A stretch of 64,000 nucleotides of DNA, taken from IMG/VR virus record IMGVR_UViG_3300002307_000042, positions 15,431-79,430 of that record; one strand, written 5' to 3'. The stretch comes from a virus. Its lineage: Duplodnaviria > Caudoviricetes. Of this stretch, positions 2,715-30,400 are shown piece by piece; the first letter of the stretch is position 1, and the number at the start of each line of letters is the position of its first letter. A program made the position numbers and the translations under genes. Under the pieces are notes generated by a model that was not told where the DNA came from, made no database searches, and saw only the letters and a program-made list of their open reading frames with translations.

Positions 2715-2743
2715 ACACTACTGTAGTTTTGGGCAATTGTCAA
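2715..2743 (-). promoter_or_regulatory. Sigma70-like promoter TTGACA-17-TAGTGT overlapping the stop codon of the 1450-aa gene
   Basis: GG TTGACA attgcccaaaactacag TAGTGT; shares GGTTGACA..TTGCCCA with the promoter at 7747-7775. Confidence 0.6.
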
Positions 2744-5700
2744 CCAGTTTCTTTCATCATGTTAGGATCGTTTGGTGAGAAGGATCCGCGATTGTGAATG
2801 GCTTTCACTTGATTAGGATTGAATATGACCCAAACTTCTCCTGATTTGGCATTACAGTCATTGGGTATAGCTTCTGCTATGATAGCCCCGTCGAACCCTA
2901 GCTTCTGTAGGTTTTCTACAAATTCAGCGCCTTCTGGTCCATCGAACAACTCCCAACGCACAAATTGATCAACATAGTAATATATTGAACGTAAGTCAAT
3001 ATTATTTTGTTTGAAGCCCTCTACAGTTTCTTCGTTGCTTAGCATACGAGAAAGGCTGTAGTCTCTTAGATCAATAGGATTCTGCACAGACAAATAGACC
3101 GGTATAATTCTTCCGCCTGGTTTATATTCTCTAGTGTTTGGATCTTCTATAAATGTTTCAGCAAACTTTGGATCTACTGCAAAGAAAGAACCATGGCGCT
3201 CTACATCAAATGTCATGCCTAATACACTTGTAAAACCCTTCCCACTTGTTTGGAAGCTGTCAAAGTCTTTAGTTGTTGCGTGATAGAACACTCTTGGCTT
3301 ATGTCCATCCCAAGCATGTGTGTGCTGTAACCAATTGTCTAGTCTTTTTTCTCTATGTTCTTTGTCATAGCCCGGGAATAACTCTTGCTGTTCTTGATCT
3401 TCCTTTAGTGTAGATGTTTTAGATTTGCCAAAGAAAAACGCATCACTTTGCGAACTTGCATTTTCACCCAAGCTTGCTCTTCCGATTTCCCATCCCTCGG
3501 GCTTTTGTATATAGATGAATGCCAGTGCGCCATCCGCTGTTGCTTTGTCAGGGAACATTAATGTTACTAATCGCTCAAAGTCATTGCCGCGTCCCATTTT
3601 ATACAGTGTTTTATCCGGAAACGAGGAACCGTCGTCAAACTCCAACCATGCAATATATTCATTATCATATACTACATCAGTAATGGTTTTTGGATTTAGA
3701 AATCCCCGAAGTTCAATAATATTCTCAGCAGTATGTGGTCTAACCTGAACTATGCTTAACGTATTACCTACTTCCGGCTTAACCTTAGAACGTTGGTCGT
3801 ACCGGGTAATAGCATTTTGGAAATCTAATAACTCCTTGATTTTCGGAGAAACGGTGTTTTCATCTACTCGCTCTAGCCAGGCAAGATTGTCTCCTAAATG
3901 ATTTACTATTCTGGTACCATAAGTTTGTCGGCGATCTATTGCTTCTTGCTCAAAAAACCGTCGTAACTCCGATTCCTTTAAAGTGCATTTTTTGAACTTC
4001 CATTCGGGTAACTGCTCATCTTCTGCTAAAAATGATTTCCACTCTTTCATTAAGTTTTCTGCTATCTTACCGTCTGCTCTAGCTTGGGGAGGAATACCTG
4101 CTCGTGATGTTTTCCAATTAAATGCCTTAGCGTTCTTTTTGATACTGTCTGGACGGACATCCTTTGTCAATGCAGTCTTGAAGCGAGGATCACTCTTTTC
4201 CTTCTCACTTGGTATATACCCTGAGGCTTCTATTAAATCAGGTACATCAACTACCGAATGTCTGTGAGGTATAATCTCAGACAGAGTGGCTCCGTATATA
4301 TCCATCGGCATTAATGATTTTTCATTTTCCAGCATCTGACTGCTATGCAGTGACTCACTGATTGTTATTGAAGTGGGTCCCGGAACGAAGGTTTCTCTAG
4401 CATTTTCCCATTCTTTGAATAATGCACCGGGGTCGATAAGGGCACCGGTTTGGTCACGTAACTTAAATCCAGTAGTATCTCTTTTTGTTTGATTGAGCAA
4501 CCAGGTGATGCCATCTGGTGTTAGGTTATCTGTTTTGCCCAAATGTATTTCTTGCCCTTTCAAATTTATGATATATTGAAATAGATTGAATACTAATCCC
4601 TTGTTAAATTGAGAGATATTTTTCATGCCCTTCAGACAACCAGCTTGTAGATACACAAAAGCCTCTATTTTTGAATCATTAGCAAAGAAATAGATATTGT
4701 TTGGTCCCGAGGCAAATAAAAATACCGGTCTACTTCCTATAGTGCCGTCTTTAACAGAGTTGCTAATAATTTGTTCATCGGTCAACGAAAGAGGACCCAT
4801 TGCGTTAGAAAACCCAATTTCATCAAGTTGTCTTGATATTTCATTAACAGGTCCTGTTCTAACCAGCGTAGTAACAGAATAACTACCAGGACCTTTTTTC
4901 AAAGAGTTTTCGTCTGATGTCTTAATAGATTTTAGCTTATAGTTAGGTAATGCCTTAGCAGCCATTCTTCCCATAGTAGCGTATAACTTTACTCTGCTCG
5001 GTTCACTAGTAGATGCCTCAAACATGATATACTTAGGATTCAAAATAGATACCGCGTCTTTTACTATGTTGACTACTGTGCTTAGAACCTTGATAGAATC
5101 GCCGGTGCCGGTCAACTTTTCTGTTCCTGCGCCAGTGTCTTGCTTAACCATGTTGAAGTTTACTACTGCAATATCTTTTCTATGCATTGCTACAGCAACA
5201 TCATATAAGTTGCCTTCCTTAGTAGTAAACTCATACTCTAACTTCCAATCATTATGCTGCTTTAGCTTGTTGTATGGGTAAGGAGAATCCATCCATTCAG
5301 TTAGCTTTTCCTTGCTCAGAATATGATCTGGTGATTCTGCTACCTGGGTGGTAGGCTTGTCAAGAATATAGTTCATTGCGCGTTGCACAATATTCAATGG
5401 TTTTTCAACTTTTGGACTGTTCATTTCAGCCTCAAAAAACTTGTATGCTCTAGTGACTAAACGCTTATACCTTTTCCCGTCTTTAGGTAAAAACTCTGCT
5501 ATTCTGTTGTGGTCTAGCGTAACATTGATAAGTTCGTATAATCTTGTTTTTGAAAATACTCTGTCATTTTTCTTAATATCGGACAATGTCAATGATATGT
5601 TATACAGTGCTTCCTGAAATCTAGCATTTATCTCGTAAGGAAGTGTCGCATAAGCTCCTGTAGGGCGAAACGCCTTACCTTTACTTTTATTATAATCAAG

Positions 5701-7092
5701 AGCATGTAATAACTCATGTGCTATAGTTTTAGCAATGTATCTATCTAATGAATAGCCTTTGCGTTTCGCAAACTTTACTAGTGCGGGATAATATAGATGT
5801 ATTTCATTAGCATAGAAATTATACGCACCTACCGTGCCGCGTTCAAATCTATCTGCTTTATAGTCTAATATAAACTTGAGTGTTTTTAAAATTTTAGACA
5901 AAACAGGGTCATTGGTTTCAGGAACACCCAATTCTGCTGCGGTAATACCATAAACTCCTAGCTTTAGTTGTTTCATGTCCGGGCCTAATACATTGGCTAC
6001 TTTACCAAGCATTGAAGTATTTCTAGATGCCATTTTAGCAATGACCGATCCTGCCTTATTCGCTACTAGATTAATGACCTGGCTTTCTTCGGTAGTTTCT
6101 GTTAATTGGTCTGTTTCTTCACTGAATATATTTTTAAACTTGCCTTTAAGACGATCCCATTCACCCTTCAATGCAGATGCAGCCATTTGTTTTTCTTGTG
6201 CGGCCCTATCTATTTTAGATTGCAATGGGTCTACTTCATTTTGCAGTTCGTTAGGGTGTATGTTCCATAATTTCATCATTCTATCAATAATAGTGGTGAT
6301 AGTATTGATTTCTTCTTTAGTCCTGCCACTAGTATTTCTTAATTTATTGATTTTTAGTATCGCGTCTTCTCTACTAGTGGCTTCGTCTAAGCTAAGCTTT
6401 TCACTTTCAAGCTTACTTCGCAAATCATACAGTGCGTTTATTCCACCCTGTGTTCTTATTGCTTTGTATGCAAGGTTTTCTGGACTAAACTCTCCTCCCT
6501 TGTCTAACCCTGCTTGACGATATCGCCTAACAGTTGATATTGCTTTATTGATTCGGTCCAAGCTTTTGGTTTTTAGTGCAAGCTCAATGAAATCATTTAG
6601 ACTTTCATACTTGTGTCTGGTTGAATCTTGGTCAAAGTTTGCTCTTGTTCTTTTAGGTGCCTTCAACCAGCGATCATGCAATAAGCTATATTCACCTAAA
6701 CTTACCACAGGTTCATTACTATCTTGAACATAGCATTCAACAGGAATACCCCTTACAGTAATGTCTAAACTGTCGTTGTATAGTGTTTTCTTAGCAGTGA
6801 ATAATTCTTGGTATACTTCATTGTTCGGTAGTTGTCTAAAATCAACTACGATGTGCAAATCAATATCGCTGTGAGGAGTATAACTATAAGCCGCATTACT
6901 ACCACTGATAGTAACGTCTTTAACTTTAAGATCAGTTAATCCTAAAAAAGAAACAAAGTCTTTGGCAATCAATAACAATTGTTCTTTAACTTCACCGTCA
7001 AGAACATGCTTATGCCACAATTTAGGATTAAGTTTGCTGTGAAACTTTATAGCGTCTGATAAGTTAAATGAGTCAAGTTCTGTAATATCCAT
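2740..7092 (-). CDS. Polyvalent protein, 1450 aa: N-terminal Pol-beta/MNT nucleotidyltransferase, HExxH zincin-like segment, unassigned central domains, C-terminal ADP-ribosyltransferase-like (ART-PolyVal type) domain
   Basis: ISGSNAAYSYTPHSDIDLHIV (GS..DxD motif); TIAHELLHALD at 5704-5718; C-terminal RVFYHATTKDF..G.FFA..IIPVYLSVQNP..LQKLGFDGAII..VIFNPNQVK pattern. Confidence 0.75.
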   Translation of the reverse strand: MDITELDSFNLSDAIKFHSKLNPKLWHKHVLDGEVKEQLLLIAKDFVSFLGLTDLKVKDVTISGSNAAYSYTPHSDIDLHIVVDFRQLPNNEVYQELFTAKKTLYNDSLDITVRGIPVECYVQDSNEPVVSLGEYSLLHDRWLKAPKRTRANFDQDSTRHKYESLNDFIELALKTKSLDRINKAISTVRRYRQAGLDKGGEFSPENLAYKAIRTQGGINALYDLRSKLESEKLSLDEATSREDAILKINKLRNTSGRTKEEINTITTIIDRMMKLWNIHPNELQNEVDPLQSKIDRAAQEKQMAASALKGEWDRLKGKFKNIFSEETDQLTETTEESQVINLVANKAGSVIAKMASRNTSMLGKVANVLGPDMKQLKLGVYGITAAELGVPETNDPVLSKILKTLKFILDYKADRFERGTVGAYNFYANEIHLYYPALVKFAKRKGYSLDRYIAKTIAHELLHALDYNKSKGKAFRPTGAYATLPYEINARFQEALYNISLTLSDIKKNDRVFSKTRLYELINVTLDHNRIAEFLPKDGKRYKRLVTRAYKFFEAEMNSPKVEKPLNIVQRAMNYILDKPTTQVAESPDHILSKEKLTEWMDSPYPYNKLKQHNDWKLEYEFTTKEGNLYDVAVAMHRKDIAVVNFNMVKQDTGAGTEKLTGTGDSIKVLSTVVNIVKDAVSILNPKYIMFEASTSEPSRVKLYATMGRMAAKALPNYKLKSIKTSDENSLKKGPGSYSVTTLVRTGPVNEISRQLDEIGFSNAMGPLSLTDEQIISNSVKDGTIGSRPVFLFASGPNNIYFFANDSKIEAFVYLQAGCLKGMKNISQFNKGLVFNLFQYIINLKGQEIHLGKTDNLTPDGITWLLNQTKRDTTGFKLRDQTGALIDPGALFKEWENARETFVPGPTSITISESLHSSQMLENEKSLMPMDIYGATLSEIIPHRHSVVDVPDLIEASGYIPSEKEKSDPRFKTALTKDVRPDSIKKNAKAFNWKTSRAGIPPQARADGKIAENLMKEWKSFLAEDEQLPEWKFKKCTLKESELRRFFEQEAIDRRQTYGTRIVNHLGDNLAWLERVDENTVSPKIKELLDFQNAITRYDQRSKVKPEVGNTLSIVQVRPHTAENIIELRGFLNPKTITDVVYDNEYIAWLEFDDGSSFPDKTLYKMGRGNDFERLVTLMFPDKATADGALAFIYIQKPEGWEIGRASLGENASSQSDAFFFGKSKTSTLKEDQEQQELFPGYDKEHREKRLDNWLQHTHAWDGHKPRVFYHATTKDFDSFQTSGKGFTSVLGMTFDVERHGSFFAVDPKFAETFIEDPNTREYKPGGRIIPVYLSVQNPIDLRDYSLSRMLSNEETVEGFKQNNIDLRSIYYYVDQFVRWELFDGPEGAEFVENLQKLGFDGAIIAEAIPNDCNAKSGEVWVIFNPNQVKAIHNRGSFSPNDPNMMKETG

Positions 7093-7113: not shown

Positions 7114-7533
7114 TTAGGAGGATAGTAGATTCTTTAAATACTGTTCTAACTCTTCGTTAGCTAGACGCTTTGCCATATTCTTTTGAATTTTAATATTCGG
7201 AGGTTGACCTGTGCCCATATCAGCATGAGTAAACACCCCATATAATTTAATATTAGTGGGATTTCTACCTGATAATTCGTATACGATACTAATATCTGGA
7301 GTTAAATGTGCTTTTAGTGCTTTAGGTAAATATTTTTTATATATACCGCTTGGGGAAAAAGGCTTGTCATTTGAACCATATTGTACAAGTGGATTTGCAG
7401 CCTTAAAGTCAGTAAACTCTTTAATTTTTTGTAAGACGTTTGGTGTATCTTTAATAGCAGATGCTAAAGATTCTTCCCATAATGGGCCATATTCAAAAAC
7501 TACATTACTTGTATTTTTAGAGGGTGGCGCCAT
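7114..7533 (-). CDS. YafQ/RelE-superfamily ribosome-dependent mRNA interferase-like protein (probable start MAPPSKN at 7533)
   Basis: DKPFSPSG..LKAHLTPDISIVYEL..LYGVFTHADM aligns by eye with E. coli YafQ DHPLQG..RDAHVEPDWILIYKL..RTGTHAALF; the His, Asp and C-terminal His positions are retained. Confidence 0.7.
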   Translation of the reverse strand: MAPPSKNTSNVVFEYGPLWEESLASAIKDTPNVLQKIKEFTDFKAANPLVQYGSNDKPFSPSGIYKKYLPKALKAHLTPDISIVYELSGRNPTNIKLYGVFTHADMGTGQPPNIKIQKNMAKRLANEELEQYLKNLLSS

Positions 7534-7717
7534 ACTTTTCTGCCATTTCAGCAAGATGCATATCAAATTCAGTGCTGGTCATAGGGCCAGACCAGGGACC
7601 ATCCTTGCTCTTAGCAAGCTTAACAAGGTCTTTGGTCATAAGACCGGTATCGTTGTCAGCGTCAAACGCTTCAAAAAGTGCATTTTCGCTGGGTTCAAGA
7701 ACTTCGTTGATTTTCAT
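7517..7717 (-). CDS. Small acidic protein, 66 aa; candidate antitoxin or head-packaged protein
   Basis: Overlaps the start of the YafQ-like ORF by 17 nt; ATAAATA motif ends 5 nt before its ATG. Confidence 0.65.
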   Translation of the reverse strand: MKINEVLEPSENALFEAFDADNDTGLMTKDLVKLAKSKDGPWSGPMTSTEFDMHLAEMAEKYGATL

Positions 7718-7746
7718 GAGAGTATTTATCCCTTCTTGATATAATC

Positions 7747-7775
7747 GTTATATCAAAAATGGGCAAGCTTGTCAA
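7747..7775 (-). promoter_or_regulatory. Sigma70-like promoter TTGACA-17-TATAAC for the 66-aa/YafQ-like pair
   Basis: GG TTGACA agcttgcccatttttga TATAAC. Confidence 0.75.
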
Positions 7776-7777
7776 CC

Positions 7778-7835
7778 AAAAAATGAGGTGGGGAGATTCT
7801 GTTACGAGGCTCTCCCCTAGCCCTATGCTAACCTC
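7778..7835 (-). terminator. Terminal hairpin/terminator of the tmRNA coding piece
   Basis: GAGGT..GGGGAGA-loop-TCTCCCC ACCTC followed by TTTTTT. Confidence 0.65.
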
Positions 7836-7872
7836 AAGCGGCTAGAGCAAATGCAAAATCGTTATCGTTTGC
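7834..7872 (-). other. tmRNA tag reading frame ANDNDFAFALAA*
   Basis: GCA AAC GAT AAC GAT TTT GCA TTT GCT CTA GCC GCT TGA, preceded by the A-rich resume context AAAAGTAGAC. Confidence 0.93.
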
Positions 7873-7966
7873 GTCTACTTTTATTTAGTCTATATGCGAC
7901 CAACCAATCAGTCTAGGCTTTCCTATTCCGCGTGTATCGATTCCCAAATATCGTCCCCATCAACTA

Positions 7967-8045
7967 CACTGTCAGCAGGACTTGAACCTGCAAGCGTATT
8001 TCAGCAATCCCGTCAGATAGCGTTTACCAATTTCGCCATGACAGT
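7967..8045 (-). ncRNA. tRNA-like element with degenerate anticodon arm, inside the tmRNA intervening segment
   Basis: Acceptor stem ACTGTCA/TGACAGT (extendable by CTAC/GTAG), D arm GCG AAATTGGTAAA CGC, T arm GCAGG TTCAAGT CCTGC. Anticodon region folds only as ATCT GACG GGAT. No encoded CCA. Confidence 0.8.
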
Positions 8046-8120
8046 GTAGATGGTGGAGACGGAGGGGTTCGAACCCTCGTGTACTCCGCTTTTATTGATA
8101 ACCATCATCAACTAATAATC

Positions 8121-8151
8121 TATTTATACGCTAACATAATGGAGTTGTCAA
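8121..8151 (-). promoter_or_regulatory. Composite promoter for tmRNA: TTGACA-17-TATAAA whose -10 box is also a T4-type late motif TATAAATA
   Basis: TTGACA actccattatgttagcg TATAAATA. Confidence 0.75.
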
Positions 8152-8177
8152 GAAGTATTTTACTAAGTTTTGTAAAT

Positions 8178-8498
8178 TTAGTAATCTTGCTGATACCAAC
8201 ATCTTTGCGTGAAAATTGCACGACCGTCTTGATCTAACACGTAATTGCCATATCTATCCCTGATATAGATATTTCTACATACTAATGGTGCATACGGAGG
8301 ACGCGGTTCTGAATAGCGTGGACGACGACTATCTGTTAAAATAGCACTAATTATTACACCACCTAACAATGGCGCTACCCAATTATCTCTATGATGCTTT
8401 TCATAGTAATGATTCCCATAGTCATCATACGGATCAGCATATGCTGAGGTCGATAATACTATAGATAGCAACGCTAGGATAGAACAAACTCTCTTCAT
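8178..8498 (-). CDS. Small exported/membrane protein, BA14K-like architecture (probable start MKRVC)
   Basis: AAGGAG SD 6 nt before ATG 8498; signal peptide ending AYA; NWVAPLLGGVIISAIL hydrophobic segment; two Cys near the C terminus. Confidence 0.6.
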   Translation of the reverse strand: MKRVCSILALLSIVLSTSAYADPYDDYGNHYYEKHHRDNWVAPLLGGVIISAILTDSRRPRYSEPRPPYAPLVCRNIYIRDRYGNYVLDQDGRAIFTQRCWYQQDY

Positions 8499-8577
8499 AA
8501 ACACTCCTTTGAACACATAGTATTACCTTTTTTGTATTAGTAAAGAAGTAATTTGACCATACTTTACTACAATTTTA

Positions 8578-15317: not shown

Positions 15318-15463
15318 TAATCATCCCCTCGCTTATGCATCAATATTTCTTTCGTATTTGGATCAAAAATCTTTACACTAGACGAGAAATACACGCCACC
15401 AACCTCATTTGGCTTTCTTTCTGAGGGGTTACTTATTTTTTTACCAGTGCTTGACATATTCAT
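15317..15463 (-). CDS. Unannotated 48-aa ORF resembling the N terminus of the next gene
   Basis: MNMSSTGKKISNPSERKPNEVGGVYFSSSVKIFDPNTKEILMHKRGDD*; TAATG stop/start overlap with the 206-aa gene; ATAAATA ends 5 nt before the ATG. Confidence 0.7.
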   Translation of the reverse strand: MNMSSTGKKISNPSERKPNEVGGVYFSSSVKIFDPNTKEILMHKRGDD

Positions 15464-15478
15464 CTCTTTATTTATCAT

Positions 15479-18400
15479 TTACGAGTTATCCACATTTAAG
15501 AATAACGCAGGGACAGTAGTGCTTATTTGCAATGGATCTCCAATCTCCGTATTATATACGTTGCTATTCCAAGTCTGGTTGTAGTATACATCTGATAATT
15601 TATTTTGATGCATTAAACTATAAACAGTTGTGTTCTTCAATATAAGTGACTGCTCGCCGGTGCCATTGACCCCTCTACTGATGCCAGTCAACATACTATT
15701 ATCAAAGTCTACACCAGTGAAGTTAATTTGTTCTCCGTTAACAAAGATTGTGTTGCCTTCGATACTAGTTATAGTCAATGAGTCACCTTCATCAATGTAA
15801 GAGCCACTAGTGATATCAATAGATGGCGCTATAGAAGAGAGCATGATAGATATATCTTCGTTAGGAATAAACAGTTGCTTATCATTATTATACACTGTCA
15901 CTGAGATTAAACTTCTTTTATCAACAGTTAAGCCGATAGTGAATACCCCGTTAACTAATGCAGGCGTGATTGATGTTTGAACTATTTTGTTAACTACACT
16001 ACCTAAATCATCTACACTTATAGTAGTAGATAGAGGATAGATATTTTCAGTTAACCAAGTTCTACTATCAGCAGGCGCTCTGTATACAGTAGGAGCACCG
16101 GTATCATCAACAAAATTGATATAAATTTCTTGATTAGGTGTCGCAGACGGAGTCATACTAGTAATGATAACCGTATTTCCTGAACTGATACTAGTCAATA
16201 TACTTAATTCATTGAAATCATTAAGTCTTAGCTTACTAGAAGGCACTCGTGTACCGTTCACAGTTACCCATAGTCTATCTACATTAGTCTGATTCCACTG
16301 CTTAGCATTGAAGCTTAGTACACCGTCAGTAAGTGTCATCTCACTACCAAACTGAGTGGTAGATATACTGAATTCAGTTCCACTATAAATGTTCTTTACA
16401 TAGTAAACTGTTCCTTGAACTAGCCCGCCGGTCAATGACGCACCATTCAAATACCCCGATCTACTGAAGTATATAGGAGTACCTGATATCAATTTACCAG
16501 TGTCTGCTACTACGATAGTAGAGCTATTATACGTTGGGCTAACAGCATATGTACGTGAAGCAGTAGCATCAATTAATCTATATTGACCTTGTACCCAAAT
16601 ATATCCACCTGAAACGTAACTTGAGATGTCAGTGATAGGGTAGTTTACGCCACTACTAGAGGAAGTATACGGTTTACTGTACAATTCAAAAGTAGTGGGT
16701 GTTACCACGCGAACATAGTAAGTTCCGTTGTTGAGTTGAGTAGAACCAACTAGTCCATCAATTCTTACTATTGTGTTTGTAGTAAACGTAGTTGATGCAC
16801 TCGTAGTAACTATAACTGATGGTTGACCTCCCACTCTAACTACCATAGAGCCAGACCCGGTTGTGAGGTTTATAATGTTTCCATTGTAATCCCGGATAGT
16901 AAAGTGAGTACTATCAACAATAGAATTGACATAATACACCGTTCCGCTTGTTGATATTCCACCGAAACTAGTTCCTTTAAAGACTACTCGCTGTCCTACA
17001 ACAAAGTCAGTTGTGCTATCGCAAACTATCTGATTTGGTCTAGTTCCATCAGTACTTGCAATAGAAGCAGTAGCTAATGTCTGGGTAGTGATGGGAGCAA
17101 TGTTGTTATTAACATTCGTAATAGCTGTTACTGTTCCAGACACATTGAACTGAGTATTCAAATACTGCTCTGATGCATCGTTGAACGTAGTTATAGAAAT
17201 AACATCACCTGCACTCGGAGTGGAAGTAATAGTTAGCACATCAGTTGATGCATTAATAGAGTACTGACTAGATGTTAGTCTTAATCCGTTTCGCTCTACT
17301 ATTGCATTAGCTGCGTTAACATCATCAACATTATTTGTCAAGTTATAAGTTGAGGTTGATCCATTAGCTACAAAACTTTGTGTTTCTGGAACAGTATAAC
17401 CTAGTTGAGGGGTAGTCTGTCCAAACATCGCATACACAATATAATTACTTTGATTAGTGTACGTATTTCCCGCAAGCAATAGAGTTGCAGCAATACCATT
17501 TGGTTGTATACCAAACGCATAGTCATAAGTGATGTATGTTGCGCCGCCGTCTGATGTTGTCAACACTACTTCTGATCCAAGCGGGGTAGCTGAAATAGTA
17601 AAAGTAAATGTACCTACTACCTGCTTTACATAGTATGTGGTAAGCGGAGTAATTCCACCAAATGCACTATTACTAAAAATGATCTTACAACCGGGCACCA
17701 TACCAGCAGTGCTGTCAGTAGTTATATAGTTTGTTCCACTAGCGGTCGATGTAATTTGGCTTGAGTACCCTTGTACTAATTTAGTTCCGTTATTGTAGAT
17801 GATCGGACTAGTCCAAGTCACCTGGGATCCTGCAGAAAGATTCAAATTCATTGAACCTGTTGCAGACGTTAATATAACTTCTGGACCAGCAACACCAGTA
17901 TCAGGATCAAACGTTAATGAAATAGTGATAGTATTTGTAGCATAGCTAATATACTTAATGAAGTATGTGGTGCTTGATGATATACCACCAAATAGTGTTC
18001 CTGAGAATGTGATTGGTGCACCCAATGTCAAGTCTGTTACGCTATCAACGGTAATGCGATTAGTTATACTTTGAGTAGCTGATACATTAACCGAATATTC
18101 GTATGTACCTGGCATGACGATACCACTTCCTTGATATTGTTCACCAGTGAAGTTGCAATCCAAGTAAATTTCATTGAAACCAGTATCGTCATTGATGCGT
18201 ATAGGATTTACATCGGTATTAGATTTTACTAGTTGGTCTCCGTTACCAACTTCGTAGACATCTATACGCAACTTTTGTAGAGGCACGAGTGTTAAAGGTG
18301 TTGTAAGAGTAATAGTTTTGTTGAGCCAGTTAACGGTATAATCTGTTCCTTGAGTTAGTGTTGTACCTAATCCAGTAGAAGCACTTAGTTTCTGAACAAA

Positions 18401-21400
18401 TACTTGAGCAGGATACTCTGTGTAACCTCCAAAGAAGTATACTTTTTGCTGGTCATTGATCGGTGTTACTTCATTTGAAATAACAGCATAGCCATTGTTT
18501 GCATAAGTTACAGATGGCCAACTTCCGCCGGGTCTAGTGTTCACAGTCAATGCTAAATTGTCTCTGACCACACCCGCTACCAATTCTTCTGGACCATATC
18601 CATACTGAAAATCAGCACCCTTGACAATGTGGGCAGCAGGTACTGTACCAAAGATTGATGTATTTGTCCAAGTTACACCATTATCATAGCTTGTCAATAT
18701 AGTGTTGTTGTCTCCTACAACGACAAAACTTGCGTTATCTGATACATATGAGACATTGTTTAAGGTCGCATTAGTGTTAGACGTTCTAACTGTATAGTTA
18801 AAACCGTCTGAAGATGTTTTAATATTTCCATTTTCACCTACTGAAACCCATGTACCATTGGAATATATGATATTATTGATATCATTTCCATCATATGAAT
18901 ACATGATCGTATTAGCAGGAACTGAACCAGCAGTAAGGTCAAGAGTAAGGCCGCCTGCAACAGGTGATATCGTGATCAAAGTAGGACTAATGATACTATT
19001 TACATAGTAATTAGTACCGGCTACGACACTAGAGAAGCTATTACTAAATTGCACTCTCTGATTAATTTGTAATGCCACGTTTGTTGTACTGATTATGTTG
19101 TTGGCAATATTAAAGCCTGTAACATATCCTTGATTTATACCGTACCAAGTTGCAGCATCTAACGAGTCGAACAGAACACCATTTTGTCCCGCAGCTATTA
19201 TGGTTGTACCATCACTTGTAACAGAATACAATGGCAAGCTAGATGTAACATCTGCAATATTCCAATTGATACCATCTGATGAGTAGCAAATTAAGCTAAC
19301 AGGATTCAATGAGATATCAGTAGCTTTACCTACTGCTACTACTCCGGTAAATTGTGCAGTTTGCACTGCTGCAACACCATATAGTTGATAATTTCTAGCA
19401 AAAGGAAATACTAGTACTTCATTCCAGCTATATCCATCAGTACTACGAACAATGTTATCACCTACTGCGATCCATGCGCCGTTAAAATATGTAGCCGATT
19501 GCAATGAAATATTTGCAACATTAATTGATGTTGAATCATAGTTGTTAGTATCCCATGCGTCTGAACCCCAAGGCGTATATGTTCCTGAAGTAGACCAAAT
19601 TCTGCCATTTGTACTAATATAAATAGGTGTTGCAGTATTTTGACTAGTAATTATATACAGACCATTTGCATAGATAATATCCGTAAGATTTATATTGGAA
19701 CTGGCTAGTTCTGCATTTATCCAATTTACACCATCTGGACTATAAACAACTGACGAATAATCAGGCAAGTTTGCAGAAGCATAATATCCATTGTTGTATA
19801 CTATTCCTGTTAAATCAACATTAGTAGGATAGAATGCCTGATCCTGTAGTATAGTATCTAGATCAAACTGCAATGCAGGCTCAAATGCATTTCCTTTGTA
19901 AGTTGAGTTAGGATATGTTAGTCCTTCAAATAATTGTGTTAAATCTTTTCCAGGCATGTTAACAGTTGGTTGATAATATCCTACTACTCTATCAAGTGCA
20001 TTGATTCTGCGATTTCCGCTATCAATCAATTGCCATTTACCAATTACAAATTCCAAATCATTGTTTGATACTAGACAGTTATACAGTCTATTATTGAAAC
20101 GGATGATACTCGGATTAAAATAGAAAGGCTCGCTCAAGAATGCAAAGCTTCCTGCTTTAGCGATTGTCATAGAACCAGTGTTGTCTGATGTAATGTTGAG
20201 CGCGGTGCCATTTGGTGTAGCTGAAATCGTTAGTTGCGTACTGGATACTATGCTCTTAATGTAATATGTTTGTCCTAAAACAATGTCAGAACTAAACATG
20301 GTTCCGGTGAACACTACAGGATCATATTGGTTGAACATTGAAGTATCAGTGACAGTTATGTAATCATTGCTGGCAGTAACTGAAGTTGCTATGGTAGTAG
20401 TAAATCCTACGTAGGGGAAAGTGTCTCCGTTGGCAGGAATAGTCATAAGACTATCGAGGTAAACCTCAAATTGATTAGAGCCACGAATCTTAAAGTAATA
20501 ATTTCTATTTAGGCTATTAGGAGTTCCACTTATAATTGCACTAGTTATTGCACCAGAACCATTAATAGTATTAACTTCTAGAACTAGATCATTTGCCGGA
20601 CTTGATCCACCTACTAAAGATCCAGATATAGAAATAGTATTAGTAATTGCGAAGCCTGATCCACCATTCTGTATTACTACTCTATACCCTCCTAGTATAT
20701 AACTAATGTCAAATGTTGGATTTGACAATATGATTTGATTTAATGTCACCGGGATCACAGGTACTTCGGCAGTCAATGAGATTGTGCTTCCGCTCGGAGT
20801 AGCAGAGAGTGTGATATATGGAACCCCTGTTCCAGTCATTCCTCCACTATCATTTTGTAATACAAAAGTAGCTCCTCCAATTGTTTCTGAAATTGTAAAA
20901 TGGGTGCTGTCAGCAATAGTCTTTACATAATACTGCTGATCAACAACAATATTTCCTAATCCGACCCCAGTGAAAGTGATTGGCATGTTTACAAACAATG
21001 AACTAGTGTCTGTAGTGACATGAATCAGGTTACCGGTGCTGCTAGTATTATCACAAATTACACTAATCGGACCTAAACCAGCGCCACCGGTGTAATCTTT
21101 TATGTAGTATGTTGTACTGGCGCTTAATCCACCGATAGTTGACTGTAGTTGAACAGGCATTCCTGTGTAAAACCAATCAGTATTATTAACTGCTAACCGA
21201 TTTACAGTAGCAATTGAAGCATAAGTTGTAGCAGACAACAACGTTCCTATAGTAATATTAGGTGCAGTTATGTTTGGATACTGCTGCGAAGTTGTATACA
21301 TACCAAACTTCTGCCCATTAACCTGTCCAGGACTTACTGGTAATGCAACGTTAGCAGTCATCAATCCGGTACCGGTGGCCAATTGTACTACATTCTTTTG

Positions 21401-24400
21401 ATTAGTTACTATCATACTGCCGGATGCATTGCTCAATGCAAATGTTGCTCCGTTGAAAATGTCAGTAATTTTAATTTGCGTATTGCTTACGACTTCACTT
21501 ACATAATACAACTGCCCTGATACAATGTTACCAAAGTTGTTTACTGGTGATCCACTGATTATCATTTGGTTGAATATAACAGGGTCGTTTAGTGCAAAGT
21601 CGCTAGATGAACCAACAGTAATAACATTACCTGTACTAGAAGTTGCCGAAACGCTAGTGCTATACACTGGAGTTTCAGGTGCAGTAGTAAACGGTTTATC
21701 ATCAATATTAGTTGCTACGTTAACATCAATTCTTGATACAGTAAATGTTTGATCATCAATTACAGTGTTAACATAATAAACCTGATTTTCTACTAAACCA
21801 CCAAATATTTCTTCGTTAGGTGAAGTAGCAGTAAAATAAAGCAATGTGCCAGGGGTAAACCCGATAGTACCGCCTGTACCGATTGGACTTACTGGAATAT
21901 TAATAGAATTGATACCTGTAGTAGTACCTACCGTGTTAAGAATTCCTGGATAATTAACAGTAAGTATAGGAAGATTCGAAACCTGGGCGGTAAAACAAGT
22001 CATTACTGATGTAGCAGTAGCGTTAGAAATAGGAACAATCGGCCCGTCTACTGTAGAAGAAATAGTAAAATCAATTTCATTGAGTATATCTCGGACGTAG
22101 TAAACTTGATCAGATACAATCCCACCGATAGTTGTACCCCCAAATTTAATTGGCATGTTTTTATATAGGCCTATTGTTGACCCACTTGCATTTGGTTCAA
22201 GTTCACTTAAGTTACTAGGATTTCCATCTTGAGGAGCAAGTCTAATTATGTTATTTGTACTAATAGTTCTTGCTATAATACGAGTGAACGAAGACCAAAT
22301 ATAAGTTTCTTCAATATTAACATCTTCTACCTCAAACACTACACCATGTGCGCTAGCTAACAAATCGTTGATGTTAGGACTTGTGCTTTCTAATGTAATA
22401 TTCGTGCTTGCCAATTTGTCAGTGTTATAGTAACTACCTGCATAATATGCTCCGTAGAAACTTCCTGATTGCCAATCAATGATTTTTGATTGATAGCTAG
22501 TTCTATCAAAACGCAAACCGATATTGTTTTCTCTTACCGGGCTTGACTGAGTAATAGCAATTGCTTTTGCACCAACATTCAATGTCATCCCTGTTGATGT
22601 ACCAATGTCTGTAATTCTGATTCTATGCTCGTCGTTGATAGCATCACTGTATGTTGAATACAACCCAATAATAGTGTCAGGGGTAGTCTCTAATACATTG
22701 ATATAGTACCATTCACCGTCTACTAATCTACCTACACCAGCGCCACTATTATTTTTATACTGGACTAGATCACCGGTTCTTAGATTAGGTGCATACACTC
22801 GTATGTTATGTAGTTTTGAAATAACCATTGTGTTGTCAAAAGTAACAACAATACCTGGTTCAATTTCAATATCAGGTAGAACTGCATACCCTTTACCAGG
22901 GTTGACCACTTTAATTTGTAATACGCTATCAAGATTCATCACTGCTTCTAGCACTGCCGGAACTGTCGGGGCAGGGTAAATAGTAGTATCAATTTTTGCA
23001 GTAACCTTAGGAGGATTCGCATATCCACGGCCGCCGCTTAGTAGTATAACAGCAGGCAAATCAATGTAAATCTCAGTAGAAGGATAGTGATTTTGTGTAG
23101 GAGTGTTATTCACTCCCCTTACTAATCCACTTAGCACATTAGTTGCTTTATCAACATTGTTATACCCGATAAGCTCATCGTCAATCTTGATTACTCCGTT
23201 AATAGGGAAGCCGCTCGCATTCTTGACAATGAGGTACTTGGTACTAAAGGTCACATAACTAGATAGAATTGTAATAGGATAATCTGGTTCTCCTACATAT
23301 CCTGTTATATTTCCTAAATCATCGTATACTGGATTACCTAATGAAAGCCCATAGTTATTATACCACTGTAAGTATTCAGTAGTGTTCCATATAGTATTTT
23401 CATAGTTATATTGGTATTCATTGTCAGTATACTGTGTGTAAACCATCTGGGGACTAATAAATTGCTCATACTGGCTATTATATCTAGATGGTAGATCAAA
23501 GTCAGTAATATCTCCCTCATATACATCCGTCTTAGTATACTTGAACGAGAAGTCTTTAATGACCACGTGATATGGTTTTACTTCGTTGATGTAAGAAGAC
23601 AAGAATGCCTGATCATCAGTCTTGTAAACTTCGTATGGTAATAATTCTCTTATAGTATGAGATACATTTACCAAGCTAGTCTTATTCAACCAAGTAAGAT
23701 AATTTTGACTTTCAAGGGTCTCTGCTTGAATATATTCAAACAATAAGATAAGTGACTTGTTTCTATAAATCAATAGTTCTTGAACAAAGATTTGTTCATT
23801 CAACGCTCTTACTATGTTGCGAGTTTCCTTACTCGGGTAAGAATCAAAACTATCAGTGTCAAAAAAGTTTCCACTATAACCAATTTTACCCGCAGAATAA
23901 TCCCACAAGTTAGATTTAAATTGAATAGTGCCGTTCTCTAGTCCAACACGAGTCCATTGACTATTTCCATCATAGCGGTAGACTTCAAATTTACCCGCGC
24001 CATTCTGTTCTACCTTAGCTAAAGTATTAACCGGCACAGTTAGTGCAGAAAGGTCTGCATAGTATGGAACTTGGATAGTAGTTTTAGTGCCGTTGTTGTA
24101 TCCTATTGCCCACCAATTGGTATATTCCCAATAATCCATAGTGTTGTAGTAATCGCCACTAGTAAATAAGAAGCTCAAATTTTCGCGCAATTCAACAATC
24201 GGGTATTGAATTAGTATGTTATTTGCATAGCTAATATAGTTGTTCAGCGCCAACGTTCTATCATAGAAGAAGCTTTGTCTAGGTACGTTTAGAATACCTT
24301 GCTGCACTAGCTTAGGTAACAATGGATTGGGAACAACTTGGCCTGTTATATCGCTTCCACTGAGACTGTCAAGCATCTTTGCATACAGTGAATGTGGTTC

Positions 24401-27400
24401 TGGGTTAGAATGCGTAGGGAACCCTGGTAAGAAGTCTTCTTCGTTGTTTTCTCTGATCAAACTATACTCAGTGTGAGAGACATCTACCGCTGTACCGGTA
24501 CTATAACCTATATGGAAAATAGTGTCATTGCCGTTGAAGTATTCTCCGCTATTATACATAGCAAATGTGTTAGGCAACAACGGAGCCATAAATGACACCC
24601 CGGACCCAATTGGATTGATGATATAACTAGCAACAACTGTGTCACTTAGTGTCTTGTTAGCCTGTTCAAAAATTATGTTAGTGTTGCGTACCCAGAAATA
24701 ATAAACAGGAACAATTAATCCAGAACTATTAATTGAACTACCTATCACATACTGATTTACATCGTATGGAACTCCAGGGCCTTGATAGTTTACAGGGAGA
24801 ATATAACTACTGATCCACGTATATACTGCTACATCGCTGCCAGGAAATACCATAGCCCAATGGCGACTATTGTACACTACATCATTTTGATGATAGTTCA
24901 TCCATCTTACATTAGTAGTGTCAAACCAGATTTTTCCTACTTGTTCTGCGCCCCATATCATACCAGGAAGATTTGTATAGTTTACATTATATTTTGCTGG
25001 GTCTGCGCTAGAGATAAAATCAATATTTTCTCTAGCAACACCCAACAACTTATTCTGTAGTGGATCTGGATAATCAAAATTCACCAATGTCTGGTTAGTA
25101 GTGGCACTGAATAGCTGAGTGTTTTGAATTTTTTCAATATCCACCACTGGGCTACTTTGTCTATAGACTGCCCAATCATTTTGTCCTGTAATATTGTTGT
25201 AGATTACTACTTTACCGCCTACTGTAACTGGTTGGTAATTAGGACTTCCTACAATAGCAACATTGTTGTTGAAATCAAGTGATAGTCCATAGCCAGGATT
25301 ATATCCATAATCTAATGAGGTGTCTATAACATCTTGTGCATATACATACTTGCCAGGATTATTTAGAGATTCTTTATTGTTTGAAAGATATTCAAAAATA
25401 TAGGCTGCTCCGGCATTTGGATACTGTTCTACGAATCCAGTTGCATTGTTATCAAACAATGTGTCGTTGTCTAGATTAGCATCATCAGTAAAGTCAAAGA
25501 ATGTTCCCTCAAAACGAGTACCAACAGGTGAAGACACTAATAATCCATTATTGTTGTTAAGCTTTACTGTGGTGCCAAACTGAGTAGGTCCGGTGCCATG
25601 TGGCGATGTTATAATTTGTGTATTAGTATAGACTTGTAGACCAAGTTCAGTCAATACATTACTACTAAACGCAGTAATGATTAATTTCTGTTCTACTGGA
25701 CTTAACTCATTATTGATCAATTGAATCATTAATTTATTGTCGGATGTAGCAGCTGCCTGAATATTAATCAATTTATTATTGTTTATTTGCTGAGCAACAC
25801 TCGTAGCATTACCTGTAGTCAAATTTACAGCAAATCCGTTAATCAACACTGTTCTATTAGTCGTCACATTGCATGGATTAGTTCCAATTATATAACCATA
25901 TTTGGCGCTGCCGTTAATATAGCTGTATACTGCTCCTTCAACATTATTGTCGTTGATTTCGTATGGAGAGCCTACTACAATATCGGCGCCTAATTTAGTA
26001 ATGTCTACACTTGTGCCAAATTGTGCATCAATTCTACTAGTAAAACTGCTACTAAACTGTTGCACTAGATTAAACCTATTGTCACTTACGTTTATAATGT
26101 CCCCGACAATTACTGTTCCTAAATAATAGAACATATTGCCAACCACAGCATAGTTATTATCAGTCACTATATTTCCGTTTACGCTCACAAACATTGGATT
26201 ATTTTGAGGATAAACACTGAACGATAGTCCTGTAGCATTAGTCAATACTATAGCAGTACTGGAATTACGTGAACTCTTAATTTTAATAGTAGAACCCACA
26301 ATACTATGAATATAGTAAACAACGTAAGGCATAAGTCCGGTGTTCTTGAAATCATTAAAGGTATTGTTAGTTCCTATTAACATGATTGGCATGTTTACCG
26401 ATAAACTAGTAACATTGTTAAGTGTTATGAAGTTACTGCTTACTACCGAACCAGTCTTACTTGATAAGTTATTAGGGGTCCAAGCTAAACTAAAGCTAGT
26501 ATTCTGAGATGGTAGGGTGCTATTAGGTACTAGGAAGTTTTGAACAGTCCTTGCATATGCATATGCGGAGCCATCATTTTGAGATCCGTAGTATGGTGCA
26601 CCTACTACTAACACGCTTCCATCAATATTAGTTGCGATACTTGATCCAAACAAATCTCCGCTAGTGCCAGCAATAGTGTTAACATAACTATATGTAATTT
26701 GTGTAGCAGCGCCTGTTCCCGAACCTGATCCAGTTGCAACAAAAGTGATTCCAACTTTGTTTTCTATTGCACCAACCGCAGTGAAATCAGTAGTGCCTAA
26801 TGTAGTAATTACATAAGTTTCACCAGAAACAAGATAGCCGGCTGTTACTGGAATATTCTGTTTTTGATAGACATATACATTACCTTTATCTAATGCTGAA
26901 ATATATAACCAATTGCCGTCATCACTAAACGCTATCTTGTTACCCCAATTAACTGAACTATCTCTACTGCTAATCGTCTGTATCAACTGTGCTTGATTAG
27001 TCAATACAGTATCATTGACCACGTATAGCTTGACAGTGTATCCGGAGGTTGGCTGTGATACTGCTACTACATTGTTATTATAAGCTATACTAGTACCAAA
27101 ACTAGAACTTCCGTTAATCGTCTGTACAGTATTGATAGTCTGTGTATAATCATTTAACACGCTACGGTAAACAATTCCATTAGTAGTATCACTATACCAA
27201 TATTCATTTAGTGGAGTGTATGCTACTGCTGCCCCAAATGTTCCGTATAAGTTGTTAGTCTTTTGTTCAAATGGAGTATAGTTGACAGATTTTTGATATA
27301 CTGCCCAGTCACCATCGGTATTGGTATCAACCCAAACTGTGTTCTTAATGAACTCATTTTCAATCAAATTGAGATTTGCAATATCGCTAGGCTGTGATAC

Positions 27401-30400
27401 GCGCTGGCTTTCAAACGCAAATCCTAATCCCCTACCTTGAATACTATTGTTATTGCCGGTAACTAGATTTAGATTGATAATTACTTCGTTTAGATTTATT
27501 ACATCAGTTACCAAATAGTAACCATCAACTCCCGCTGAGAAATTAACAATTGCCATTGGATCATTCTTGTTCAACCCATGTGCGGTGCTAAATGTTACAG
27601 TAGCAGTTTGATTAGTATTTCCTCTGACTTGTATGACCTGTCCAATAATTTTCCAACGGAACACATTCCATTTTTCTTTGAAATTAGCAAGCCACACATA
27701 GTCACCTACGTAAAAATTCTGAATAGGTACAGGGTTATTATAAGTGTTTACTGCAAATGGCAACTGTGCGTAGAAATAACTTGCCATTTTAACATCACTA
27801 TAATTTACATATCCTGCACTAGGGAAAAGTAAACCATTAGTACTAGTGCTAGTAGTTTGCAGAATGTTTGCCTGAGTTACAGAATTTTCATAATTGTACA
27901 ATTGCCAGATAGGAACTTCCTGCATTGCACCCTGGGTACCAACTCCATCAGTCAGACTTATTATAGCAGGATCGCCTGTCATGTTAGCTTGATTGACTCT
28001 GAATTCTACAAAGTTTTGATTTAAAACTCCACCATAGTTACTATTTTGTATGGCCCAGTTTTCATATGTTTCGTATTGTATTCCACCTTGTGGTAAGTTA
28101 GCACCGCTAAATGCGCTTACGGCATTCAATGTTCCTTTGTTCTTGATTAAGTTTTGATAAACTTGAATTTGAGCAGAATCAGTCAAATCAATAGACTGTA
28201 AGTAATCTCTTGGTCTAAATCCAATTAAGCTAAATGATAGCAAATCTGATTCTTGCTGTAGATTTGCATTATAAATGTCATAGTAAAGAACACTTTCATA
28301 AGCACGAGTACTTGGGTTAGGAAGTAGCCCAAACTGAACATCACTGTAGCTGATCTTTTTCCATTTAGTTTCGTCAAAGGTGTTTGATGGTTCAATAATA
28401 GTCAATGAAGTGTAATAATCATTTTTATACATGACAATAGCATTTTTTGTGTACTTGATACTGCCACTATATTCTTGTATATTATCCTGACTTAAAATGA
28501 ATCCCCATGCATTTACTGTCCCGTTCCACTGAGCAGTCTTTAATCCGCGAGTAAAGATTCTATCCTGCTTTAACCCAGTTACTGGACTATAGATTACATC
28601 GTTGAACAACGTTAAGTTATTAAATACCACCCCGTGTTCAAAGTTACTCATGTTGAACTGAGCATAACTGATGCTGTCACCAACGTTGATAGTGTGTGCA
28701 TGGAATCTAGTACCATCACGATTCACACAAATATCTTTCAACTTTATAGGATACAAGTTTTGATTGAGTAAGAAATTACTTTGCTGCAATGTAAGCGGCT
28801 GCACTACCGTGTCTGCCGTGTCAATTACCAAATCCTGAGCAGATGGATTTAGTGTTATGATACTTCCATTCTCCCATCCCTGCTGTGACCAATACAAGAA
28901 CTCAAGAACCATCTGGTCCCATGTAATAGATAGTCCATTGACAACTGTATCAAAAACTACTCCTTTACTAGAAAGATTTGCACCATAGCTCATTAAGAAC
29001 TGGCTTAAATCTTGTGTGTTGTAAAACTTAGTACCATATGGCACTAAAGTTTTTCTATCTGAATAGTTAACTGCTACTTTGACTTTTGCGTTTTCTACTG
29101 ATAGGTTACTTACTTTACCATCAAAGAGTGGGTCTAATATTTCAAAATAAGCAAAGTTTTGACTATTTCCATATACTGTCCAATAGCCTTTATTTTGCTG
29201 TACGATTACTGAACTAAAGACAATTCTATCATATGGCTGATTTTCGTACAACAAGATGTCATAGCTCTCTTGAGGTATTAGTAATGATGAGTTATTACTG
29301 TTGGCAGAACTTTTCTCCACATAGAAATTCATCAATTCTTTAGAGGAATATCCTGCCATTCTGTAAACCAATCTTACATCAATGTTGTTTAACATAGTTG
29401 TAATATTAGTGGTACTATTAATACCTTGCTGCTTTTCATAATCAACTATCCAGTTGATGAATGAAGTCTTAGGAGTACCGTCACCGTATATTTCAATATT
29501 GCTTACAACTAAATGTGAGCGATCATTCACTAGATATTGATTAAATTCACTATTATACTTGTAGTTATCCAAGTCTACTGCATAGTTAAAGAATTCAGCA
29601 GGACGAGTCAACGCAAAGATTTTGATTAAATCAAATGGCCAAGTTGAACTACGGCGATAGCTTAATTCTACTGGACCAACGTCACCCACTTTCCATTCAG
29701 ACTGGAAAGTAGTAGCTGTATAGTTTCCTACGATAGCATCAAACGGACTCAACAAATTACCTGCACTGTCAACAGGAATTATTTGTGATAGCCCTGGGCG
29801 AGCTAGTTCAGGGACAATGTAGGGGTTACCGTTGTTATAAATGTATCCGTTTTCAATGTCATTCCACAGTATCAAGTTAGTGCTAGTGTATGGTGCAGGA
29901 CCATAACGACTAGTCCACCACGTGGGCATTTCACTGAAGCCTAGCATTTGCCATGGCGTTAAGTTAGGAGCAAAAGTATCGTAGAAATAACTGTATACTC
30001 CTCTCCAATATCCTTGGTCTATTGCAGAATTATCTAATTTATTTGCACTATTTCTATAGTTATAAGTGTACTCATTATTCTTGCTAAAGTACTGAGTCTT
30101 GTAATCAAGTCTATTCTGCCCTACCCAGTCCAAGAAGTTAGGAGTATACATTTCAATAAATTCATCGTAAGTGTACGTTGCTGTACCTTGTCTGAAGTAT
30201 CCAGGTAATACTTCATAATCACGAATAGGGACATTAGTGCTTAATTTGATATTATTATAAATTCTTTGTTCAAACTCTAGTAATGCTTGGTCTCTAAAAT
30301 CAATCAATACATTATTAACTGAATCATATTCGCCATATAGTTTTGTATATGACCCATCGTGTCCTTTAATAAAGTAAGTTGGGATTAGATAATCAGTCTC

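Follow-up and report, generated by a model that had tools for sequence, protein, structure and literature searches.

A putative YafQ-like nuclease and its acidic partner downstream of a two-piece tmRNA gene in a jumbo phage fragment

To our knowledge, why phages carry genes for transfer-messenger RNA (tmRNA) is still unexplained, and the locus described here raises the question of whether such a gene can serve a nuclease encoded beside it. In the IMG/VR virus record IMGVR_UViG_3300002307_000042 (Caudoviricetes), a two-piece tmRNA gene is followed by two overlapping open reading frames (ORFs), one for a 66-aa acidic protein and one for a 139-aa basic, YafQ-like protein (hereafter the partner and the nuclease). 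An initial annotation, made from the sequence alone, had proposed that the three form a translation-takeover cassette. Here, we report a computational analysis of 64,000 nucleotides of that record (positions 15,431 to 79,430; "the window" throughout), in which every element so described was found in its place, all on the minus strand (Table 1). We put at about 0.55 the probability that the pair comprises an effector RNase, belonging to a large, unnamed, phage-borne branch of the RelE/YafQ (BECR-fold) proteins, and a cognate 66-aa inhibitor or binding partner, an assessment that rests on sequence comparison and structure prediction.

The source contig is viral, 79 kb long and judged ~22% complete, and is therefore a fragment of a jumbo phage (G+C content, 38.9%). 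A freshwater metagenome, which may be the source of the contig, is the sole public run with the full locus, no RNA run is listed as carrying it in the public-run lookup, and blastn found no match to the locus among GenBank phages. The comparison of loci covers 19 distinct viral loci (relatives are labelled L0xx and genomes G0xx; L049 and L050 are two places encoding the same protein). The sole cultured relative with the module is Ralstonia phage RsoM2USA (343.8 kb; MG752970.1), which belongs to the XacN1 group of myoviruses, is lytic and has 44 tRNA genes (PMC8504454).

Results

The nuclease was listed as a frame of 150 aa from TTG 7566; the ATG at 7533, which gives 139 aa, fits the N-termini of homologues and the database gene call, and the ORF overlaps that of the partner by 17 nt. 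Searches of Pfam, NCBIfam and PHROGs, and of PDB with phmmer and with a profile, returned nothing significant for the 139-aa protein; matches to eL20 and YegS (E 0.25-1) were dismissed as noise, and one homologue record of the Joint Genome Institute bears the label YafQ. The assignment came from structure. An AlphaFold model built with a 37-sequence alignment (predicted local distance difference test score [pLDDT], 83.7) matched Escherichia coli YafQ in Foldseek (E 5.6e-4; template modelling score, 0.76 on target) and in VIA-align (Z 11.4-11.5; root mean square deviation, 2.0-2.1 Å over 89/90 residues), where the Helicobacter pylori toxin 4ltt (Z 11.7) tied with it by the program's own rule (within 0.3 Z). 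In both searches these were followed by other H. pylori YafQ-type toxins, YoeB and RelE, with ParE lower. The model has two N-terminal helices on a four-stranded antiparallel sheet, as in RelE, YafQ and YoeB. The "YafQ-like" label of the initial annotation is thus borne out by the fold, YafQ being at or tied for the top in both structure searches. The family comprises 271 clusters at 50% identity (E ≤ 1e-3). One further candidate (P0073; 2,201 aa with 18 domain "repeats") was rejected as the low-complexity, out-of-frame-looking translation of a repeat.

The His/Asp/His residues singled out by the same annotation are also conserved, as His76, Asp80 and His103. By hhalign, residues 73-90 pair with YafQ 60-77, which places His76 on His63 and Asp80 on Asp67; by structural-alignment offset, His103 corresponds to His87. 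YafQ cannot do without His87, its general acid, which Asp67 tunes; His50 (primary) and His63 (back-up) are redundant bases (PMC4652777). Conservation was counted in 152 family members that lie beyond the close clade. None of them deviates at His103, Asp56, Tyr85 or Gly107, and Lys44 is present in 151, Asp80 in 144 (Asn in the other 8) and His76 in 129. A second His occupies position 74 in most of these distant members, where the window has Lys74. His76, Asp80 and His103 are therefore our putative catalytic residues, and we read the nuclease, from its alignments and model, as a branch of the superfamily that probably retains catalysis and stands apart from the YafQ family of Pfam.

The 66-aa protein is very probably the cognate partner of the nuclease. 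It is acidic (13 Asp+Glu versus 6 Lys+Arg), its gene starts 69 nt past the tmRNA, and a homologue lies directly upstream of the nuclease gene, usually overlapping it, in 16 of the 19 loci; the partner is also present in four further relatives (L046, L049, L050 and RsoM2USA, genes 115/114), including beside nucleases only 47% (L046) and 32% (L049/L050) identical to that of the window. The two genes are adjacent, co-oriented, overlapping and conserved together, the architecture of type II toxin-antitoxin systems. The observation exceeds chance, for the paired genes recur across a large protein family. The conserved part of the partner is its N-terminal 45 residues. Modelled together, the two proteins gave an ipSAE (interaction prediction score from aligned errors) of 0.75 in three runs, versus 0.01 for the best of three controls; the mark used for this score is reached by 58 of 80 solved complexes and by 2 of 110 mismatched pairs. 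The runs agreed on at least 72% of contacts, with a partner pLDDT of 64 or more. In the model, residues 40-66 of the partner touch strand 1 and helices 1-2 of the nuclease; these C-terminal 27 residues add onto the strand and cross the two helices. That the small acidic ORF encodes a partner therefore stands as regards its place directly upstream, its conservation and its co-evolution with the nuclease, while binding is so far a prediction of the complex model.

The first 16 residues of the partner open with the pattern M-K-(I/L)-x-E and end with (L/I)-x-E (positions 14-16). Both (L/I)-x-E motifs persist in distant homologues with few exceptions (L022 has L-D and L-R-E), and genes for T4-type prohead protease (Peptidase_S77) occur in three related genomes. 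From its sequence, the N-terminus may be a cleaved capsid-targeting leader.

Upstream of the pair lies a promoter-like site, TTGACA-N17-TATAAC, which a consensus promoter scan misses, the second hexamer being without its final T. This site and the hairpin at the 3′ end of the tmRNA (below) were read by eye and rest on conservation, TTGAC and the TA of the second promoter hexamer being kept in 14 of 14 aligned relatives, including those without a nearby tmRNA. Judged by these signals, the two genes form a transcription unit of their own, which a conserved, predicted sigma-70-type promoter precedes. A palindrome overlaps the second hexamer, perhaps as an operator or as a 5′ hairpin; palindromes (arms of at least 6) stand equally far from the ATG in 5 of 18 loci, and in L010, L017, L020 and L033 the sequence varies while the position is kept, 18-23 nt before the ATG. 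A further motif, GATAAATA, resembles the T4 late-promoter box and occurs seven times in the window, always on the coding strand near gene starts; the total is not above chance (7 versus 5.0 expected). It lies exactly 5 nt from the partner ATG in most relatives, where it may serve as a translation signal or as a late promoter whose message would be nearly leaderless.

Downstream, 21 nt after the nuclease gene, begins the gene for a 1,450-aa polyvalent protein with an N-terminal nucleotidyltransferase-like domain, DUF6934 and a C-terminal ART-PolyVal domain (the last two by Pfam). A homologous N-terminal domain is encoded downstream of the pair in eight relatives, and the corresponding domain of the L024 and L029 proteins has a weak NTP_transf_2 match. 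In two distinct relatives (four loci, L024-26 and L029), the YafQ-like domain is itself the C-terminus of the polyvalent protein, in one uninterrupted frame of ~1,475-1,500 aa that runs from the N-terminal domain through an amidoligase-like domain to the YafQ-like domain. A six-frame profile search found no partner-like segment inside or upstream of L024, L029 or L028 at E ≤ 10. Homologous polyvalent proteins thus swap their C-terminal module, ART-PolyVal in the window and YafQ-like in L024 and L029. Other family members are fused to GNAT/DUF6934, NUDIX or GH19 domains (GNAT in P0080 and P0146), and among 17 long proteins the YafQ-like domain is C-terminal in nine and N-terminal in six. The domain is therefore found both solo beside multidomain phage proteins and inside them, as polyvalent modules are. 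Polyvalent proteins are known to carry RNase domains of the BECR fold as one class of module, and an attack on host RNA upon entry has been proposed for these (PMC5512222). Across the loci compared, the nuclease associates more tightly with polyvalent effectors than with tmRNA.

The tmRNA is real and its tag, ANDNDFAFALAA, ends in LAA, as the initial annotation had it. Both Rfam models scored above gathering (tmRNA_permuted, RF04321, at 7834-8112, 78.8 bits versus 47; alpha_tmRNA, RF01849, at 7787-8155, 72.5 bits versus 50), and the tag was read by translation. An encoded CCA at 8051 closes the acceptor piece, the coding piece begins at G 7958, and the acceptor stem has a G3:U70 pair, read from the sequence. 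With G3:U70, the encoded CCA and the LAA-ending tag, the tmRNA looks functional. A search of three partial genomes and of the complete genome of RsoM2USA found no gene for SmpB. The two-piece tmRNA is a separate, probably functional gene, which would have to use host SmpB. Its 3′ hairpin and T-run escape a consensus terminator scan, the loop being too long. ARAGORN calls no tmRNA in the window or in any relative except L027 (tag, ANDDVYAMELAA), blastn against GenBank phages gave only a 30-nt chance match for the tmRNA, and the tmRNAs of relatives are too diverse to be caught by one exact DNA pattern; their tags, read from the coding pieces, differ and end in LAA or MAA. RsoM2USA has a permuted tmRNA of its own (RF04321, 96.7 bits), which goes unmentioned in the paper describing that phage (PMC8504454).

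The 92-nt segment between the two pieces folds at −31.8 kcal/mol (z −3.7) and holds a tRNA-like element with acceptor, D and T arms and a defective anticodon arm (ARAGORN, "tRNA-???"; RF00005, 40.2 bits versus a gathering score of 29). In the nine cases delimited (the window and eight relatives), the intervening segments are unrelated in sequence and 14-135 nt long; in seven of them, including that of the window, a long terminal stem closes a hairpin, and (T)GAT or CAT stands between the hairpin and G1. The tRNA-like element was considered as a conserved processing signal and rejected, being present in the window only among the nine.

A co-oriented permuted tmRNA lies within 4 kb upstream of the nuclease in 11 of the 19 loci, so that the linkage is not unique to this contig. 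The single three-element cassette did not hold: the tmRNA ends in its own hairpin and T-run, and the pair has its own promoter, conserved where no tmRNA is nearby. The stretch from tmRNA to pair ranges from 69 nt to 2.6 kb and holds unrelated genes in different relatives. Elsewhere the two are ~155 kb (G001), 45 kb (G005) and, in complete RsoM2USA, 250 kb apart; G009 has only a sub-threshold standard-tmRNA match (29.4 bits versus a gathering score of 47), ~17 kb from the pair or domain. No tmRNA was found within 5 kb of the distant members L046 to L050. In the clade of the window, the order is collinear: a gene of the orf112 family comes first, followed in some cases by a GNAT gene; then come the tmRNA, variable genes, the pair and the genes for the polyvalent protein, a 90-aa protein and a MoxR ATPase. 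As the tmRNA adjacency lies within this longer block, descent explains it, and it carries little independent weight. The more telling case is L027 (38% identity), which has a beta_tmRNA (130.6 bits) 2.5 kb upstream and shares no other tested neighbour with the window. Among the genomes searched, permuted tmRNA scored above gathering in G001, G005, G006 and RsoM2USA, all of which carry the pair or domain; these are related phages, so their co-occurrence is not independent evidence. The tmRNA is, in sum, a syntenic neighbour in one clade and no obligate part of the module, and functional coupling to the pair is possible, by analogy with known RelE and tmRNA biology.

Several neighbours were recorded beside these elements. 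The pair of RsoM2USA (genes 115/114) sits inside a tRNA array, with seven tRNAs upstream and five downstream, co-oriented and within 6 kb, a position compatible with a translation theme and also with a simple region of accessory genes. In L027, the genes directly downstream of the pair encode an NMN (nicotinamide mononucleotide)-adenylyltransferase/NUDIX protein and a nicotinamide phosphoribosyltransferase; such NAD (nicotinamide adenine dinucleotide)-salvage sets are used by phages against NAD-depleting defences. Just upstream of the tmRNA, the window encodes a protein of 112 aa (family F3) that begins like a signal peptide and matches YARHG weakly; it is kept in this place in six relatives. 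A GNAT acetyltransferase gene precedes the tmRNA in L010, where the two abut, in L020 (~130 nt away) and in L023 (~660 nt away). The window also contains tail-fibre genes and a single ORF of 6,309 aa.

Table 1. Coordinates of the features discussed, in the window unless another sequence is named
Feature	Sequence	Coordinates	Strand	Remarks
139-aa basic ORF (nuclease)	Window	7114-7533	-	pI (isoelectric point) 9.2; YafQ/RelE-fold core 10-108, C-terminal helix 114-138
66-aa acidic partner	Window	7517-7717	-	pI 4.35; three predicted helices
Partner residues 1-16	Window	7670-7717	-	(L/I)-x-E motifs
Promoter-like region of pair	Window	7736-7775	-	TTGACA 7775-7770, 17 nt, TATAAC 7752-7747
Palindrome	Window	7736-7756	-	9-bp arms; overlaps second hexamer
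GATAAATA sites	Window	7097, 7723, 11948, 15469, 37819, 38372, 47041	-	
1,450-aa polyvalent protein	Window	2740-7092	-	Starts 21 nt after nuclease gene
Two-piece (circularly permuted) tmRNA	Window	7787-8155	-	Rfam RF04321 and RF01849
tmRNA tag frame	Window	7834-7872	-	ANDNDFAFALAA and stop, by translation
tmRNA intervening segment	Window	7959-8050	-	92 nt; contains tRNA-like element 7967-8045
Hairpin and T-run at tmRNA 3′ end	Window	~7780-7817	-	Read by eye
112-aa protein (family F3)	Window	8178-8516	-	Weak YARHG match
6,309-aa ORF	Window	15479-34408	-	
Fused polyvalent protein	L024	137-4564		
Fused polyvalent protein	L029	5-4513		
NAD-salvage genes	L027	4481-6958		Directly downstream of pair
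GNAT acetyltransferase gene	L010	2880-3362		Upstream of tmRNA
GNAT acetyltransferase gene	L020	1299-1772		Upstream of tmRNA
GNAT acetyltransferase gene	L023	2235-2705		Upstream of tmRNA
tRNAs flanking RsoM2USA pair	L033	458-1787 and 8093-10050		
Permuted tmRNA of RsoM2USA	MG752970.1	331728-331923	-	L034; RF04321

Discussion

In the reading that we prefer, an effector RNase with its cognate small inhibitor or binding partner, the pair is part of the host-directed effector repertoire of the phage. The C-terminal region of the partner would bind strand 1 and helices 1-2 of the nuclease and would keep it off the ribosome, as DinJ does for YafQ. YafQ grips 16S rRNA with lysine patches (PMC4652777), and helices 1-2 of the nuclease carry equivalents of these (by approximate structural offset); because the bound face corresponds to those patches, the partner may act by blocking ribosome binding. 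Once released, the nuclease would cleave messages in the A site of the ribosome, and any benefit of clearing ribosomes stalled on cut messages would be one for the genome and not for a cassette.

A number of observations weigh against this reading. The window protein has no match to Pfam's YafQ_toxin (PF15738) at E ≤ 1, and that model reaches only E ~0.1 in 3 of 37 homologues; nor do the Pfam models of PBECR domains match the nuclease at E ≤ 1. His76 is replaced in 23 of the 152 distant members and in 4 of 37 close ones, the equivalent of YafQ His50 (position 57) is Lys here and K/T/R/Y/S/A across the family, and YafQ Phe91 has no evident aromatic equivalent, Gly107 being invariant there. The partner has no Pfam match and no recognisable DNA-binding domain, and its model alone (three helices, first ten residues disordered) is of moderate confidence (pLDDT 66.5). 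The success of the complex test may reflect the memory that the model has of solved toxin-antitoxin complexes. Finally, the fused forms come without a partner gene; the domain would therefore be non-toxic in that context or controlled differently.

Three other explanations were weighed. In the translation takeover proposed at the outset, the nuclease would cut host mRNA in the A site, and the phage tmRNA, with host alanyl-tRNA synthetase and SmpB, would free the ribosomes and tag the fragments for ClpXP, joint function keeping the genes together. A-site cleavage by RelE-type toxins makes non-stop complexes and tmRNA rescues them, so the order of cutting and rescue fits established biology; the tmRNA looks functional by its G3:U70 pair, encoded CCA and LAA tag; it lies within 4 kb upstream in 11 of 19 loci, including distant L027 with another tmRNA type; the pair or domain occurs in all searched genomes with a permuted tmRNA (G001, G005, G006 and RsoM2USA); and the RsoM2USA pair is inside a tRNA gene array. 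Against this stand the separate transcription units, with a pair promoter kept where no tmRNA is near, the variable spacing (69 nt to 2.6 kb) filled with unrelated genes, the ~17-250 kb between the two in four genomes, and L046 to L050, which have no tmRNA within 5 kb. The adjacency within the clade is explained by descent, and co-occurrence in one lineage is not independent evidence. The phage is, moreover, AT-rich (38.9% G+C), and its own messages would suffer if the nuclease had the preference of YafQ for AAA codons. We consider takeover unlikely. To join the pair, the tmRNA and, in RsoM2USA, the tRNA array into one translation-reprogramming system, with the partner doubling as a capsid-targeting adaptor and the inhibited nuclease packed in the head to arrive with the DNA, as fused polyvalent forms presumably do, would be a long shot; the capsid-targeting idea arises because the disordered partner N-terminus has two conserved (L/I)-x-Glu motifs of the T4-type prohead-protease kind and relatives encode such a protease.

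The gene arrangement, a small acidic gene upstream of and overlapping a basic RelE-fold gene, would also suit a conventional type II toxin-antitoxin system for conflicts between phages, unrelated to tmRNA or polyvalent protein and serving co-infection exclusion, stabilisation, or as a decoy or neutraliser of host RelE-type defence toxins. Its partner is predicted to bind through the C-terminus, as RelB and DinJ do, a palindrome covers the second hexamer, the usual operator place (5 of 18 loci), and the pair occurs in varied contexts among phages. Yet the partner has no known DNA-binding fold and is most conserved at its N-terminus, the reverse of the usual fast-evolving antitoxins; partner-free polyvalent fusions and fusions to GNAT, NUDIX and GH19 domains are atypical of addiction modules; and, the cultured carrier being lytic (PMC8504454), there is no obvious role for plasmid-like stabilisation, which makes this account distinctly unlikely. 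Very improbable, in our judgement, is a RelE fold that does not cleave RNA and instead, for example, inhibits some other target in the manner of ParE or serves neighbouring effector domains as an adaptor that binds the ribosome or RNA. Proteins of the RelE/ParE fold do include non-nucleases such as ParE (PMC11980606), two of five important YafQ residues (His50 and Phe91) are not kept, the domain is found at either end of multidomain enzymes, and the extra C-terminal helix is absent from YafQ; but invariant His103, near-invariant Asp80 and a conserved His76 (with a further His at 74 in most distant members) show the pattern of a His-based RNase site and not that of ParE, and YafQ, YoeB and RelE outrank ParE structures in both fold searches.

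What the analysis adds is a phage-borne, YafQ-type family of 271 clusters that is invisible to Pfam, NCBIfam and PHROGs and comes with a new kind of small partner. A structural assignment and candidate catalytic residues are now available for the family, and RsoM2USA (genes 114/115) represents it in culture. It bridges type II toxin-antitoxin nucleases and polyvalent effectors, the domain being accompanied by a separate partner in some members and incorporated in a giant effector in others. If the nuclease cuts ribosome-bound mRNA, a lytic jumbo phage would have both a maker of non-stop complexes and a rescue RNA; if true, that would be a concrete reason for phage tmRNAs, a coupling that is for now only a lead.

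Among known systems, the pair is closest in several respects to E. coli DinJ-YafQ (PDB 4ml0, 4q2u and 4mmj). The fold match takes in all of YafQ, counterparts of His63, Asp67 and His87 are present, and the order is the same, an acidic partner first and a basic nuclease second, overlapping, with the C-terminus of the partner predicted to bind. Unlike YafQ, the nuclease has only ~20% identity to it, no YafQ_toxin match, no equivalents of His50 and Phe91, an N-terminal extension and a 25-residue C-terminal helix; unlike DinJ and RelB, the 66-aa partner is not recognisable as a ribbon-helix-helix protein and has no known fold assignment; and unlike DinJ-YafQ, the system is borne by jumbo phages and is also fused into polyvalent proteins. 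With the PBECR domains (Iyer et al. 2017, PMC5512222), for which a role against host RNA early in infection was proposed, it shares a BECR, RNase-like domain that occurs solo or in large proteins with ART, GNAT and nucleotidyltransferase domains; it differs in the YafQ-type His/Asp/His set in the sheet, in the lack of a PBECR Pfam match and in the dedicated small partner gene of most members. T4 RegB is reportedly an early phage endoribonuclease of ~150 aa with a RelE/YoeB-like fold that acts on mRNA, has no partner and needs ribosomal protein S1; it is absent among the fold matches listed for the nuclease, and no membership is claimed.

The tmRNA resembles the phage-encoded and two-piece tmRNAs (RF04321, RF01849 and RF01850) in its permuted order, CCA, G3:U70 pair and tag of the ANDN...LAA type. 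Two-piece tmRNAs are found in alphaproteobacteria, some betaproteobacteria and cyanobacteria, and the host genus of RsoM2USA presumably has the ordinary one-piece form. The tmRNA of the window differs in being located in a jumbo phage, no phage SmpB having been found in the genomes searched, and in an intervening segment that is wholly different between related phages.

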